Assembly (NCBI GenBank): GCA_008080735.1
Contig: SHMW01000010.1
Span: 24,976 to 88,975, forward strand
Length of the DNA stretch: 64,000 nucleotides
Direction: 5' to 3'
DNA from: Promethearchaeota archaeon
GTDB lineage: Archaea > Asgardarchaeota > Lokiarchaeia > Sigyniarchaeales > SOKP01
Shown here: positions 5,910 through 11,382 of the stretch, one piece after another
Position numbering within the stretch: the first letter of the stretch is position 1
How the letters are laid out: each line of letters opens with the position of its first letter
Made by a program: the position numbers and the translations under genes
Notes under the pieces: generated by a model
The model's input: the letters and a program-made list of their open reading frames with translations, nothing else
Databases searched by the model: none
Told to the model about the DNA's origin: nothing

Positions 5910-7034
5910 TTACTTATCTATATGTTTATCCCAAATGAGTTCAAATAGAGCGCCTTTATCGTTTTTGCTATAGATAATTTTACCTCCATATCTATCCATT
6001 ATTTTTTCAATGATGGTAAGACCTTTTAATTTTCTATTCTGTGTGGGGTTTTGGAAATGTGATTTAACAATCTCTTCTGGTAGGCCAGGACCGAAATCTT
6101 GTATTTTAATCGTTGCAGAATTATCATCTTCACATAGGGAAATATCTATCTTTTTGGTATTTGTGTGCTTAAACGCATTCCTAATTAATTCTTTGAGAAG
6201 CAAGTCCAAATAATCATCAGCTAAGACATTACAGGTGCCTTCAATTTCAATTGGTTGAGAGTATTCTTTTTTTATCTGTTCAATGATGTTTCTTGGATTA
6301 ATCTCTCTCAAAGAACTTTCCCTTGTGAAAAGTTCTTTTAATTCTTCAATATGTTCAATAGAATCTAAAATACTTTGAATATGTGGCATTAGAGTTTCTA
6401 TTATTTCATTAGATAATTCTGAATCTTCTTGTTTCATTTGTAAAAAACCGTAAATAAACGTGAGGTTGTTGGCAATTTCATGTCGAACGGTACTAGTTAA
6501 TAATTTAAGGTTGTCTCGTTGTTCTTTGATTTTTTCCTGAGCTCTTCTTAGTGTCTCATTGTTAAATATGAGTTCAAGGTGAGCATCCACAGCTACTTTC
6601 ATCTCTTTCATTAGATTTTTCTTTTTCTCTGAGAAATTGCGCTCTTTCTTGTCGAGCACACAGATTGTTCCGAAAACGTCGCCCGTCGGCCATTCCAGAG
6701 GAAATCCTAAGTAGGAGATTAATTTATTTTCTTCCAATCCCGGTTTGTTTTTATGAATGGGATCCTTATAGGCATTAGGTACTTCATGCATTTTTTTTCT
6801 CTTTATAGTAATTTCACAGTATTTATCAAAAATTGTCTCTTTATAATTCTTAGGTATTGGATTTCCCTCGTTCTCGCTTGTTATAATTGCCTCAAGATAT
6901 GGATCTTCATATTTCATGATGATTGCCGCGGGGACACCCATTAATTGGGCTAAAGCATTGACTAATCTTTGCCATTTATCCATTATTGATTGCGGCAAAT
7001 CTAGGTCACTAACTAACATTTGAGTTTTCCCCAT
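5910..7034 (-). CDS. GAF-domain sensor histidine kinase
   Basis: GAF (SYLGFPL...FGTICVLD), H-box RHEIANNL, N-box ELIRNAFKH, G1 box IQDFGPG. Confidence 0.88.
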   Translation of the reverse strand: MGKTQMLVSDLDLPQSIMDKWQRLVNALAQLMGVPAAIIMKYEDPYLEAIITSENEGNPIPKNYKETIFDKYCEITIKRKKMHEVPNAYKDPIHKNKPGLEENKLISYLGFPLEWPTGDVFGTICVLDKKERNFSEKKKNLMKEMKVAVDAHLELIFNNETLRRAQEKIKEQRDNLKLLTSTVRHEIANNLTFIYGFLQMKQEDSELSNEIIETLMPHIQSILDSIEHIEELKELFTRESSLREINPRNIIEQIKKEYSQPIEIEGTCNVLADDYLDLLLKELIRNAFKHTNTKKIDISLCEDDNSATIKIQDFGPGLPEEIVKSHFQNPTQNRKLKGLTIIEKIMDRYGGKIIYSKNDKGALFELIWDKHIDK

Positions 7035-7256
7035 ACTAGATTAATTAAACTAATTATTTTTAAATTCTGTTCTTAATAGATTTAATAGTCTATATTAATA
7101 TATTGAGATATATTCTATATTCAGAAAAATAAAAGAAAATAATAGTACGAATCTATTTTTAGGTTCCAGAATTTAGGTTAAAATCCCTTAAGGGATGAGT
7201 TTTCTCGCATTTTCGATGATAAAATTAAGGTAAAATATTTCCAGTAATTTCTTACT

Positions 7257-7415
7257 TCATAAACTCTCATATAATTCTGATGGTTTCCCACCGCACCCAA
7301 AGGTAAAAGACAAAAATTTTCTCTTTTTTTCACACTGGGGGCAGTAATAATTTCCCGATTCCTCTTTATCATCAAATGTAAATCCACATTCTTCGCAGAT
7401 CACATAGCTTTTCAT
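7257..7415 (-). CDS. 52-aa zinc-ribbon microprotein, Cys paralog of the selenoprotein at 10074-10193 (not in ORF track)
   Basis: Hand translation: MKSYVICEECGFTFDDKEESGNYYCPQCEKKRKFLSFTFGCGGKPSELYESL; CxxC...CxxC plus a fifth Cys. Confidence 0.8.
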   Translation of the reverse strand: MKSYVICEECGFTFDDKEESGNYYCPQCEKKRKFLSFTFGCGGKPSELYESL

Positions 7416-7572
7416 ATCCAATTTATGCTAAATAGATTATTAAAAACCAGAGGTTATAATCCCTTAATAATTGGAATGACCTTGAGATAATAGATAATAA
7501 AAAATTCATATTATACTATTTTCTAAAAATTGAGAAATAAAAAGTGTTAGGACAAAATCCGTGAGAATTGAG

Positions 7573-7704
7573 TTAGGATTCTGATTCTTTTTCAGACTCC
7601 ATCTTAAAGAATTCGGTGTATTTCCCACAATTAGCGCAGTAATACTTTCCTGGTTCATCTTCATCATCGATCGCGGTTCCGCATGATCTACAAATAACAG
7701 TCAT
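7573..7704 (-). CDS. 43-aa zinc-ribbon microprotein (not in ORF track)
   Basis: Hand translation: MTVICRSCGTAIDDEDEPGKYYCANCGKYTEFFKMESEKESES; aligns with 7257-7415 (VICxxCG...DD.E..G.YYC..C). Confidence 0.8.
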   Translation of the reverse strand: MTVICRSCGTAIDDEDEPGKYYCANCGKYTEFFKMESEKESES

Positions 7705-7768
7705 AAATTAATTTAGGATAATGGGATATATTAATGTTTACTCCATTTCAAACTGTTCCTTTTATCAT

Positions 7769-8401
7769 TTAAATGATACAAATTGGATCAGTCAAAAATC
7801 CGTCTCCCATTGGGATACTGTCAAAGATAGCTCTTGCGTAATTGGAAGAGTATCTATATGCGCAAAAGTCCCCTATGAAAGTTCCGCGTAAACCATAATG
7901 AAGATGAGAGCCATCATTTGCATATAGCAAATCTGCAATTGGGTCACCTATATTCACACGTTGAAGTATAGATACTTTAATGGCGTTTCGTTGTAAAGTG
8001 TTATTATAGGTATCATCGCCGTTAAAATTAGGTTCTATACATAATTCGACTGCCCATCCCCAATTTATAAGAATACTTACACTGAATAATATATTAGAAT
8101 TTTCTGAATGAGGATTTTTATGTTCTGTTATACCCATAACGGTGCCTTTCACGGGTGAGATTATAGTCACTGTATCATTAATAACGAGATCAATTCCATT
8201 ATGGTGTGTTCCAGGACCGCTCCAATCTGGTACTCCATAAGGACGAATATGGTCAATTTTCCCAGATTCTTCAATTGGAAATTCTAATGATGGATCGAAC
8301 GGTATTGGGGAAACGCCTATAAGTAGGATCGCAGTAACGAATAATGAAAGGAGAAGAATGGGAATAAAGACCAATAACTTTTTCTTTTTGGTCCAATTCA
8401 T
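7769..8401 (-). CDS. Membrane-anchored M23 family peptidase-like protein
   Basis: N-terminal TM anchor, HxxxD (HNGID), SPVKGTV, RVNIGDPIA and HxH (HLH) motifs. Confidence 0.7.
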   Translation of the reverse strand: MNWTKKKKLLVFIPILLLSLFVTAILLIGVSPIPFDPSLEFPIEESGKIDHIRPYGVPDWSGPGTHHNGIDLVINDTVTIISPVKGTVMGITEHKNPHSENSNILFSVSILINWGWAVELCIEPNFNGDDTYNNTLQRNAIKVSILQRVNIGDPIADLLYANDGSHLHYGLRGTFIGDFCAYRYSSNYARAIFDSIPMGDGFLTDPICII

Positions 8402-8526
8402 TTTTTCATGATTATAAAACTATAAAATATTATTTAAGTAAAAAATGTATGATTTTGATAATAAATTTTTTCTCAACATTAATCATCGAACTATTAAGAG
8501 AGGATATGAAATAAAAAATGAAAGGG

Positions 8527-8596
8527 TTCCCATAACCCGCGCGAGGCAGTCATCAAATGTCTCATTTTTTTACATTTGACTCATCCAAAATGGGAA
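8527..8596 (-). promoter_or_regulatory. SECIS element 1 (3'-UTR of the UxxU Prx-like gene)
   Basis: Minus strand: TTCCCAT...gg ATGAG TCAAATGT AAAAAAATGAG ACATTTGA TGAC ...ATGGGAA. UGAN/NGAN core, 8-bp helix, A-rich loop and lower helix, starting 3 nt after the TAA. Confidence 0.88.
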
Positions 8597-8599
8597 ATT

Positions 8600-9091
8600 T
8601 TAACAATATTGTTTAATTGCGTTGAGAATAGTCTCGATATCTGGTCTGTCCGTCTTAGTTTCAGCAATATATTTCCACATAATTTTTCCCGAGTTGTTAA
8701 TTAAAAATTTAGACGGTATAGCTTGCTTAGATTTAATATTTGTTTCTGCTATATTTTCATATATCTCAATATCGAATTTTTCTGCAATTTCTGCGTTCTT
8801 ATCTGAGATTTGTGAAAAATGTAGGTTGTTCTGCTCTTGATATTCCCGCATATGGTTTTCACTGTCCGATGATATTGAAATAAGTTTAACATTGTATTTT
8901 CGGATTTTTTCTAGGTTCTTATTTAAGAGAATAGAATGCTGTTTTCAATGACCTCACCAAGTCCCTCGGAAGAAATCGATAAGTAATCAACTATAATTAT
9001 CTATTATCTCTGATAAATCAATTATATTTCCGAGAATGTCTGTAATCTTAAAGTATGGTGCGTTTTTTCCAACCATAAGTCCTTCATTCAT
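8600..9091 (-). CDS. Peroxiredoxin-like (AhpC/TSA) selenoprotein with a UxxU motif and a third in-frame TGA
   Basis: ATG 9091 is in frame with ORF 8600-8851: MNEGLMVGKNAPYF...NYS*LLIDFFRGTW*GH*KQH...LISISSDS...AIPSKFLIN...DRP. TGAs at 8987-8989, 8954-8956 and 8945-8947; SECIS downstream. Confidence 0.85.
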
Positions 9092-9307
9092 AATTTAGGC
9101 ACTGTGATTATATTATTGAAGTATAGGTGTTTAAACAATCATCTTAAATGTATTATAAATAATAAATTATGACCAATATCTAAAAACAAATTTATAATGT
9201 TTTTTTATTGTATTTTGAATTGTACATTTTTTTCAGCTTTTCTCCCCAAAAGTATGATCATGCCGAATTTTTAAAAGCTTAAAAAAATAAGAGAAAAGAG
9301 TCTAAAT

Positions 9308-9376
9308 ACCAGAACCTGGACAAAAGGTCGTCAACAAATGCCTCATTTTTTCTGCATCTGTATCATTCTCTCTGGT
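9308..9376 (-). promoter_or_regulatory. SECIS element 2 (3'-UTR of the UxxC Prx-like gene)
   Basis: Minus strand: ACCAGA..ga ATGAT ACAGATGC AGAAAAAATGAG GCATTTGT TGAC ...TCTGGT. Same geometry as SECIS 1 and the same AAAAAATGAG loop sequence. Confidence 0.88.
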
Positions 9377-9377
9377 T

Positions 9378-9893
9378 TTATAATTTTTTATCAATTTGCT
9401 CTGTTAGCAACTTGATTGAGGGCCTATCTTCCCTTGTACCAATATATCTCCATGCAATTTTCATTTCCTTTCCAATTAGAAAGGTGGAGGGAATCGCTAA
9501 TTTAGTCTTAAGATAGATTATATCTATGGCGCTTCCAAAGGTATACACATCAAATTTCTTCGCAATCCTCGCTCCTCTGTCAGAAACTAAAGGAAATGTA
9601 TATCCAAACTTACCGGATAATTCTTTTAAATGGTTTTTACTATCACTGGCAATTGCTATAAAGAACACCTTTCGTTTTTGAAATTCAGTTATATTTTTAT
9701 TAATTCTCTCTAAATGTTCTTTGCATGGAACTCAAAATGCGCCTCTAAAGAAATCTAATAGGATACCCCCAGAATCCTTCAAAACTTTTGTAAAATCTAA
9801 AATATTTTCGTTGATATCTACCAGCTGGTCAATAGGGATTTGAGATCCCACTTTTAATCCTTTATCAGAATCTTTATGCTCAATATCATTCAT
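9378..9893 (-). CDS. Peroxiredoxin-like (AhpC/TSA) selenoprotein with a UxxC motif
   Basis: ATG 9893 is in frame with ORF 9378-9668: ...GLKVGSQIP...GGILLDFFRGAF*VPCKEHL...IAIASDS...AIPSTFLIG...EDRP. A single TGA at 9732-9734 sits at the first redox-Cys position; SECIS downstream. Confidence 0.9.
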
Positions 9894-10001
9894 ACAAAAA
9901 GAGATCATGTGGAATGATTTATTTATTCCTTTTTTAAAAAATAACTTAATTATATTGACAGTGATCAGGAAGATAATTCTTATATATTGATGAGAAACCC
10001 T

Positions 10002-10060
10002 TGCAAGGTGGTCAACATAAATCTATAATTTGTATTTATGTCTCATTCCGTTAAAATGCA
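10002..10060 (-). promoter_or_regulatory. SECIS element 3 (3'-UTR of the zinc-ribbon micro-selenoprotein)
   Basis: Minus strand: TGCA...ga ATGAG ACATAAAT ACAAATTATAG ATTTATGT TGAC cacct TGCA. Perfect 8-bp helix, UGAG/UGAC core and an 11-nt loop containing AAA and ending AG. Confidence 0.82.
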
Positions 10061-10073
10061 CAGTATATAGTTT

Positions 10074-10193
10074 TTATCATTTGAAGCTAAAGACCATAAA
10101 ATATTGGATTGATTTTCACAAAGGGCAATAATGATAACCGTTGGTCTTCTTATCCAAATGTAATATTTTTCCGCATTTTTGACAAATTATCAT
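10074..10193 (-). CDS. Putative zinc-ribbon micro-selenoprotein, CxxC...CxxU...U (not in ORF track)
   Basis: Hand translation: MIICQKCGKILHLDKKTNGYHYCPL*KSIQYFMVFSFK* then TAA. TGAs at 10116-10118 and 10077-10079 both align with Cys in paralog 7257-7415; SECIS follows. Confidence 0.8.
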
Positions 10194-10338
10194 ATATTCT
10201 CTAAGAGTGTAAGCTTTTATTCTAAATTAAAAATAAGTTCTATATTTTAAAATATCGATAATTTTATTATCCAAAATAAATAAATGTTGATTAATCCAAA
10301 TTTTTTTCGAAAATATAACTAGAATCTTCTTGATCAAA

Positions 10339-11382
10339 ATGGAATTTGTCCGATATAATGAAGAGAAATATACAGTTGAAAAAGGATTCTTAGATTTAGG
10401 TCTGTTAGGTATAAAAAACTTACGAGAAGTCAAAGGACTAAACAAATTAAAAGATATTTACCACTTGGAATTGAGCTCTAATGAAATTTCTTGTATTGAT
10501 GGTTTAGAGGAACTCACCTCATTAGAAGTTTTAAACTTAGGGAGCAATTCGATCCTAGAAATATCAGGATTAGAGAGTTTAGAAAATTTGGAAGTATTGC
10601 ATCTAATTAGTAATCAGATCGCAGAAATTAAAGGATTAGAAAATCTAAGAAATCTAAAAGAACTCTATTTGCGAGGAAATCAAATTAAGAAAATAATGGG
10701 ATTAGAAAGTCTAAATAAATTGGAAAAATTAGACCTTTCTTGGAATCTTATCAAATCGATAGAAGGATTAGAAAATTTACAGAATTTACAAGTCCTCTGG
10801 ATAGCAGGAAATATAGTCACTCAAATTTCTGGATTAGAACATTTGAGTTCTTTGAAAATCTTAAATTTAGCGGGAAATCAAATACAAAAAATAACGAGTT
10901 TGGATAATCTGGAAGAAATAGAAGAGCTTTATCTAAATAACAATCGGATAAAAAAAATTGAAGGTATGGGGACTCTGAAAAACCTTGAATCACTATGGCT
11001 AAATGGAAATAAAATAAGCAAGATTGAAGGATTGGATAATCTTTCAAATCTAAAACTGTTAAATCTTAAAGAAAACAACTTACCAAGAATTACTGGGTTA
11101 TTAAAACAAAAAAATTTGAAAGAACTTTATTTATCTGGAAATGAGATAGGACATATTTCCGGACTTGAAACTTTAACTAATTTAGAAACGCTCGATCTAA
11201 ACGATAACAATATAAAGAAAATTAATGGCTTAGAAGCTCTAATGAATTTAAATTCCTTATGGATTAAAGGGAACCAACTACCTGAAGATGTATTAGAAAA
11301 ATTAGGGGGCATAGATTCGTCTGGATTTGCGAATGATCCTATTAAATTTGTAGAATATTGTCTAATCAATATTTCCCAATAA
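10339..11382 (+). CDS. Leucine-rich repeat protein (SDS22-like, 22-aa repeats)
   Basis: About 13 tandem LxxLxLxxNxIxxIxGLxxL repeats. Confidence 0.92.
   Translation: MEFVRYNEEKYTVEKGFLDLGLLGIKNLREVKGLNKLKDIYHLELSSNEISCIDGLEELTSLEVLNLGSNSILEISGLESLENLEVLHLISNQIAEIKGLENLRNLKELYLRGNQIKKIMGLESLNKLEKLDLSWNLIKSIEGLENLQNLQVLWIAGNIVTQISGLEHLSSLKILNLAGNQIQKITSLDNLEEIEELYLNNNRIKKIEGMGTLKNLESLWLNGNKISKIEGLDNLSNLKLLNLKENNLPRITGLLKQKNLKELYLSGNEIGHISGLETLTNLETLDLNDNNIKKINGLEALMNLNSLWIKGNQLPEDVLEKLGGIDSSGFANDPIKFVEYCLINISQ

Follow-up and report, generated by a model that had tools for sequence, protein, structure and literature searches.

The gene considered here lies in a 64,000-nucleotide stretch of the genome of a Promethearchaeota archaeon (the whole stretch is called the window below) and contains three in-frame TGA codons. 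The question that it raises is whether all three are translated as selenocysteine (Sec, U), and what a third Sec would mean in a protein type described with one or two. The reading frame, gene A, runs from an ATG at 9091 to a TAA at 8602-8600, 163 codons with TGA read through, and an in-frame TAA is found two codons 5′ of the ATG. Translation places the three TGAs at codons 35, 46 and 49. Codon 46 occupies 8956-8954 and codon 49 occupies 8947-8945, in the context LLIDFFRGTW-TGA-GH-TGA-KQH. The original prediction had described this segment as FFRGTW-U-GH-U-KQ, the active site of a peroxiredoxin-like (PrxL) protein, next to a paralog with a UVPC box, and minus-strand translation showed both descriptions to be exact. 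The paralog, gene B, has one TGA (9734-9732, context FFRGAF-U-VPC), is 39% identical to gene A and lies 290 nt upstream of it. It is concluded here that gene A very probably encodes a thioredoxin-like oxidoreductase of the PrxL.1 type with the PrxQ/BCP fold, in which all three UGAs are decoded as Sec by means of a single eukaryote-like SECIS element in the 3′ UTR and the SepSecS, PSTK, SelD and EFSec machinery of the genome. We infer Sec insertion at each UGA from the codons, the SECIS, the machinery of the genome, conservation and purifying selection. The two-Sec type as such was already published in 2016, and the third Sec codon is the one uncommon feature of this gene.

Table 1. Features of the gene A locus, in positions of the window
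Feature	Positions	Strand	Basis or remark
Gene A, PrxL.1-type Prx-like selenoprotein, 163 aa	8600..9091	minus	translation, Pfam AhpC-TSA, AF2 model
Codon 35 TGA, NYS-U-LLIDFF	8987..8989	minus	first residue of central beta-strand 35-40
Redox box U46-G-H-U49 (TGA GGT CAT TGA)	8945..8956	minus	start of helix 47-58
Cys163 (TGT/TGC), last residue of gene A	8603..8605	minus	conserved in closest relatives
LokiSECIS of gene A, with lower helix	8527..8596	minus	pattern and covariation
Gene A 5′ region, probable promoter/5′ leader	9092..9190	minus	comparison with L002 185-284
LokiSECIS core of gene B	9331..9366	minus	AUGA 9366-9363, GA 9332-9331, 12-nt loop
Gene B, tandem PrxL.2-type paralog, 176 aa, box U-V-P-C	9378..9908	minus	translation

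The same three TGAs are present in three further assemblies, which makes a sequencing or assembly error unlikely. Two of these are JGI metagenome assemblies (3300035158 and 3300034152; loci L139 and L140), identical to gene A at 490 of 492 positions, and the third is a Logan contig (SRR12689834; L002) carrying an ortholog with 88.8% DNA and 83% protein identity. Other searches returned less. A metagenome scan with the gene A protein gave no match, the back-translated patterns having put Cys codons in place of TGA; nor was there a match to the degenerate DNA pattern that spells DFFRGTW-TGA-GH-TGA-K exactly, and a word-index protein search with shorter gene A fragments returned only the window's own pieces. 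Among Pfam families, gene A matches AhpC-TSA (PF00578, E 8e-23) and Redoxin (E 8e-16). It has no match to PF13911 (AhpC-TSA_2, PRXL2/FAM213) at E ≤ 0.01, and a precomputed PF13911 match stands beside PF00578 in some of its distant homologs.

The lokiSECIS of gene A has a lower helix in which UUCCCAU (8596-8590) pairs with AUGGGAA (8533-8527). Its core (8584-8550) begins 16 nt past the stop codon and contains AUGA at 8584-8581 and GA at 8551-8550, separated by a 9-bp stem (8580-8572 with 8560-8552) and an A-rich loop of 11 nt (8571-8561). Published descriptions of the lokiSECIS of Lokiarchaeota give these same dimensions, 9 bp for the stem and 11 nt for the apical loop (Mariotti et al. 2016, PMC4989117; also PMC11227280). 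By pattern search, this architecture was found 3′ of the stop codon in 32 of 37 PrxL homologs from related genomes. When 29 distinct elements are aligned without gaps, eight of the nine stem pairs change on both sides. Of the stem cells in this alignment, 91% are paired; shifting the partner by 1-3 columns lowers the figure to 28-60%. Because only elements with 8 or more pairs had been chosen, the percentage paired is inflated, whereas the compensatory changes are not affected. The strict lokiSECIS pattern has seven matches in the 4.1-Mb genome and none in a shuffled genome; three of the seven are inside the window. The third of these, at about 10046 on the minus strand (C10:35021), is upstream of gene B, and the three cluster within 1.6 kb. 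The other four (C7:24791, C13:33825, C42:13569 and C102:10379) presumably belong to other selenoprotein genes, e.g., HdrA-VhuD and VhuU, and the type II SECIS of SelD is not expected to match the strict pattern. An Rfam scan of 7000-11000 gave no SECIS family even at E ≤ 10, lokiSECIS being outside the Rfam models, and single-sequence minimum free energy (MFE) folding of the 3′ UTRs of genes A and B gave z-scores near 0 and did not recover the SECIS shape. The element was recognised only by its pattern and by covariation across homologs.

The genome, a metagenome-assembled genome (MAG) of 4.1 Mb that is 93% complete, encodes SepSecS (E 2e-116) and, 6 kb from it, EFSec/SelB (244 bits, just above the 242-bit cut-off). 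It also has a gene for a PSTK-like kinase (E 2e-52), and its SelD carries an in-frame TGA and is thus itself Sec-containing. A tRNA-Sec was not found with ARAGORN and Rfam, an absence that says little, as ARAGORN returned only 13 tRNAs in total. One tRNA-Cys (C1:11422-11511) measures 90 nt and probably contains an intron, and tRNA detection in this MAG clearly needs intron-aware tools.

The MAGs with homologs of gene A bear the title Promethearchaeota or Promethearchaeia and so belong to the Loki-type Asgard archaea. PrxL proteins were found in 92 of the 161 species-representative genomes of the window's class (E ≤ 1e-10); virtually every match among the 161 genomes has one or two TGAs, and three are found only in the source genome. 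The first redox-box position is TGA in all 37 PrxL genes that were extracted, and this, together with the conserved SECIS, means that the TGA pattern of the box is not due to chance. At the second position TGA occurs in 12 of these genes, TGT in 15 and TGC in 10. A survey of 76 further PrxL loci gave 59 UxxC, 14 UxxU and 3 CxxC motifs, the CxxC trio being from Acidobacteriota and the only bacterial loci among them. On a maximum-likelihood tree of PrxL, UxxU and UxxC must have been exchanged at least 4-5 times; with switches so often repeated, the second Sec is easily gained or lost by a single third-base change. Both redox-box TGAs of gene A are kept in its orthologs, a check that the original prediction had proposed.

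The three Acidobacteriota loci (L136-L138, from MAGs) are the nearest non-Asgard relatives that were found. They have CPYC or CSYC in the context LVIDFFRGRWC, Pro at position 35 and no Sec, at 23-26% identity, and the archaeal PrxL family may have its bacterial kin in them. Six Loki-type UxxC or UxxU PrxL genes (L109, on DATKTW010000172.1; L097, L106, L132, L071 and L073), 42-44% identical to gene A, come from MAGs labelled Nanopelagicaceae bacterium, Thorarchaeota, Odinarchaeota, Hodarchaeota and Hermodarchaeota; the contig with the Nanopelagicaceae label looks like a mis-binned Asgard contig. Four Logan proteins (P0003, P0006, P0007 and P0011) have W at the redox positions in the public calls, e.g., FFRGNW-W-NH-W-KQH. 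Apparently these short contigs were translated with a code in which TGA is Trp, and Sec was stored as Trp.

Codon 35 has a different history from the redox box. It is GGA in 22 of the 37 PrxL genes, the nearest relatives included, and in the 76 further loci it encodes Gly 70 times, Ala three times and Pro three times (the bacterial outgroup), with no TGA. TGA35 was found in the four assemblies with three TGAs, the window among them, which represent two lineages 11% apart in DNA. The next relative of this group (JGI 3300022699) has GGA at codon 35 and a UGHU box, and the maximum-likelihood tree groups the sequences as ((A, L002) 100/99, L001) 100/97. On the evidence of this alignment and tree, TGA35 is derived from a Gly GGA codon by one G-to-T change. 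The change is a recent one, confined to one sublineage, and UGA35 would be tolerated because a SECIS in the 3′ UTR recodes any in-frame UGA. By topological reasoning from strand 35-40, which leads into the redox box, residue 35 should lie at the end of the strand away from U46 and U49. U35 would most likely be a Sec without a catalytic role, placed where the central strand begins and thus at its far end from the redox box. The simplest reading is that of a tolerated, near-neutral Sec allowed by recoding that does not depend on position.

It is less readily accepted, and in our judgement unlikely, that U35 has a function of its own, either as a selenol (in a selenenylsulfide relay with Cys163, an intersubunit link or a metal ligand) or as a checkpoint for selenium availability. 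In the checkpoint variant, UGA35 would abort translation before the active site whenever Sec-tRNA is scarce. The retention of TGA35 in two diverged lineages speaks for a function, though the same retention over 11% divergence is expected of a neutral change too, and one origin of TGA35 is known and no more. The conserved C-terminal Cys of the gene A clade points in the same direction, most PrxL proteins in the 76-locus survey being without Cys outside the redox box. Judging from thioredoxin-fold topology, strand 35-40 would begin, and helix 152-162 would end, at the pole opposite the redox box, and this arrangement also favours a function. A terminal Cys is present in gene A and its TGA35 ortholog L002, and likewise in L001 and P0003 (with the endings …QYC, …ENC and …EKC), and L033 has a Cys four residues from its end (…KKCNAH). 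L001 and P0003 have Gly at position 35, however, and since Cys163 thus predates U35, the two did not arise together. The C-terminal Cys could serve this subclade, and it alone, as a resolving or relay residue. The absence of Cys outside the redox box had been reported for PrxL proteins earlier (Mariotti et al. 2016, PMC4989117). A tolerated U35 remains the preferred reading.

The AF2 model of gene A, built on a 27-sequence alignment, has a pLDDT of 95.7 and a pTM of 0.91, and its best structural matches are peroxiredoxins of the BCP/PrxQ and AhpE groups (TM up to 0.87-0.90). This could be taken to mean that the product is a canonical peroxiredoxin which works by the peroxidatic mechanism of BCP/PrxQ, with Sec replacing the peroxidatic Cys. 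The structural matches (TM 0.8-0.9) support such an assignment, as does the alignment with HMMER of U49 with the peroxidatic Cys of A. pernix BCP, the best sequence match of gene A in the PDB. The PxxxT/SxxC signature of peroxiredoxins has been lost, however: R42 stands at the Pro and U46 at the Ser/Thr, so that U49 alone matches. The catalytic Arg is missing as well. In the alignment, the Arg of BCP falls on Q123, a nearly invariant residue, and a three-residue gap precedes the invariant P126; no conserved Arg was found on this strand, which follows helix 4, among 26 aligned homologs. A cis-Pro takes the place of the peroxiredoxin Arg in thioredoxin-like oxidoreductases, and an invariant Pro on that strand, as in gene A, is what they show. 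U46 and U49, moreover, which fall on the redox box of the 26 homologs, align residue for residue with both Cys of the WCxxC box of ResA. Judged by these residues, the product is not a canonical peroxiredoxin, and the peroxidatic mechanism is quite improbable for it. PrxL is likewise set apart from canonical peroxiredoxins in PMC4989117.

As a thioredoxin-like oxidoreductase, the product would attack its substrate with U46, whose place at the helix 2 N-terminus is taken in ResA and thioredoxin by the attacking Cys, and U49 would act as the resolving residue. The two would alternate between the diselenol state and that of an intramolecular diselenide, and the latter would need re-reduction by a low-potential donor. 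The product would be a cytoplasmic (seleno)thiol:disulfide reductase or a hydroperoxide scavenger in an anaerobe. We infer the diselenide, the low potential and the substrate by analogy. The neighbouring genes (an M23-like membrane protein, a GAF histidine kinase, MFS transporters and an LRR protein) give no lead to a substrate or a reductant.

Whether the gene is translated through UGA35 was addressed by comparing gene A with L002. The two differ by 55 substitutions, with no indel and no new stop, and in a neutral simulation the absence of a new stop together with the retention of all three TGAs had P = 0.04. The dN/dS ratio is 0.25 for the whole gene and 0.19 for codons 36-163, where 19 amino acid changes were counted against 29.2 ± 2.7 expected neutrally (simulation, P = 3.5e-4). 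Codons 1-34, with 13 substitutions and a dN/dS of 0.81, are indistinguishable from neutral (P = 0.34). They are the least conserved region of PrxL (majority-residue frequency 0.60 vs 0.72), and 7 of 10 family-conserved positions in them are kept in both TGA35 lineages. As this part is without significant constraint, the case for translation through UGA35 rests on the part downstream of it. The dS of gene A (0.32) is similar to that of the downstream neighbour gene (0.41), and gene A is the less constrained of the two (omega 0.25 vs about 0.09). A restart of translation after codon 35 was considered and ruled out, there being no in-frame ATG, GTG or TTG before Met81. With no in-frame start between codon 35 and the box, the constrained part of gene A requires read-through of UGA35, and it is likely, in our estimate, that this UGA is read as Sec.

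Were UGA35 a true stop, gene A would be a young pseudogene of the sublineage, and the UxxC paralog next door would do its work. A Sec at codon 35 is indeed without precedent, Gly being found there in nearly all other Asgard homologs, the rate in codons 1-34 is compatible with neutrality, and gene B is close at hand. Against this, TGA35 is older than the 11% DNA divergence over which neither indels nor new stops have accumulated, codons 36-163 are clearly under purifying selection, the lokiSECIS differs from that of L002 in one loop base and nothing else, and the 5′ region is conserved. We regard a pseudogene as very unlikely. The original prediction had named decay in orthologs as the observation that would speak against it; none was seen, and the gene is under purifying selection relative to its 11%-diverged ortholog.

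The conserved 5′ region consists of about 100 nt upstream of the gene A ATG that are nearly identical to L002, compared with an 11% difference in the coding DNA, and it is more conserved than the synonymous sites of gene A. It contains a TATA-like TTTATAAT/TATAATA and is probably, judging from its conservation, a promoter or leader. Directly downstream of the UGHU PrxL gene, a protein of 210-217 amino acids is encoded in three contigs (7769-8401, minus strand, in the window; L001 890-1522; L002 957-1610). It has an N-terminal hydrophobic segment and a weak match to Peptidase_M23 (E 1e-4), and it is strongly constrained (dN 0.039, dS 0.41).

The original prediction left it undecided whether the protein is related to selenoprotein L (SelL) or convergent with it. 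The sequence similarity did not go beyond the superfamily level, and convergence gained support. The NCBIfam model for SelL-related redox proteins (NF040769) gives gene A 52.2 bits, under its cut-off of 120, level with the models for BCP (54.9 bits) and ResA (52.8 bits), and the same three-way tie is seen for all 27 aligned PrxL homologs. This tie and the repeated switches between UxxC and UxxU favour convergence within one superfamily, which is the better reading of the sequence evidence. That gene A should be an ortholog of animal SelL, with UxxU by common descent, is extremely improbable: UxxU in a Prx-like thioredoxin fold is common to both and the SelL_rel_redox model recognises each of the 27 aligned PrxL proteins (E 9e-17 at best), but the score is far under the cut-off and equal to those for BCP and ResA, and the archaeal second position toggles between TGA and TGT/TGC so often that UxxU arises easily. 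According to PMC11227280, moreover, Asgard archaea are without any eukaryote-specific selenoprotein family, which also counts against SelL orthology.

UxxU Prx-like sequences were reported from ocean metagenomes in 2008. In 2016, Mariotti et al. described PrxL.1 with two Sec (UxxU) and PrxL.2 with one Sec (UxxC) in Lokiarchaeota and proposed a SelL-like diselenide for PrxL.1 (PMC4989117). It was later found that 43% of Sec-using Asgard archaea have Prx-like selenoproteins (Huang et al. 2024, PMC11227280). In the portion of the 2024 Asgard Prx-like sequence set that was available, neither the X-LLIDFF form nor the UGHU box is present among the sequences. In a 2026 review, the entry for Prx-like thiol:disulfide oxidoreductases reads 'UxxC, UxxU' with 1~2 Sec (PMC13188914). 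Hence, a Prx-like UxxU selenoprotein of thioredoxin fold in an Asgard archaeon, as predicted, is upheld by the SECIS and the Sec machinery, but its novelty is not, as it was published in 2016; for this feature, gene A adds one more Lokiarchaeal genome in agreement with the 2016 and 2024 publications.

The value of the locus is modest and lies elsewhere. The resolving position of PrxL, which flips repeatedly between Sec and Cys, offers a natural series for comparing the benefit of a diselenide with that of a selenenylsulfide. The change from Gly to Sec at codon 35, in a gene under purifying selection in two lineages, would be a clean example of a new UGA rescued by an existing 3′-UTR SECIS, and even a neutral U35 would document a rare event, the birth of a Sec codon at a position other than Cys. 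Such a birth would be possible only because the distal SECIS recodes every in-frame UGA. The codon thus bears on how independent of position recoding of the Asgard/eukaryote type is and on how multi-Sec proteins such as HdrA, VhuD and SelP grow. If recoding of every in-frame UGA holds true, it would help to explain the many-Sec selenoproteins of Lokiarchaea.

Among known systems, the PrxL.1 of Lokiarchaeota (PMC4989117) is the closest in kind. It has the AhpC/TSA fold, belongs to the same phylum, has Sec in place of both redox-box Cys and occurs alongside the one-Sec PrxL.2 type, and its lokiSECIS, with a 9-bp stem and an A-rich loop of 11 nt, is likewise by the stop codon. Gene A differs from it in adding a third UGA at Gly position 35, the published proteins having 1-2 Sec, and a C-terminal Cys. 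SelL (Shchedrina et al. 2007) shares with gene A the UxxU motif, the Prx-like thioredoxin fold and the use of one 3′-UTR SECIS for two UGAs three codons apart. It is from animals and other aquatic eukaryotes, and its similarity to gene A is at the superfamily level only. SelL has been shown to form a diselenide (Shchedrina et al. 2007, as cited in PMC4989117 and PMC2398784). The bacterial Prx-like selenoproteins (PF00578, PMC13188914) belong to the same Pfam family and have Sec at the first box position, but their SECIS is of the bacterial type and within the reading frame, whereas that of gene A is eukaryote-like and in the 3′ UTR.

With the two groups of Cys proteins, the likeness is divided between fold and active site. 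The BCP/PrxQ proteins (S. solfataricus Bcp4, 3hjp; A. pernix PrxQ, 2cx3) have the fold of gene A (TM 0.87-0.90, rmsd 2.0 Å) at an identity of about 19-21%, whereas gene A is without the catalytic Pro, Thr and Arg and has a CxxC-type box. ResA and TlpA have the W-C-x-x-C box at the helix N-terminus and a conserved Pro on the strand facing it, and the NCBIfam ResA model is the family match with the best E-value across the PrxL alignment. They are membrane-anchored, extracytoplasmic and Cys-only, unlike the PrxL proteins, which have no signal or anchor sequence, contain Sec and retain the extra N-terminal hairpin of the peroxiredoxin fold.
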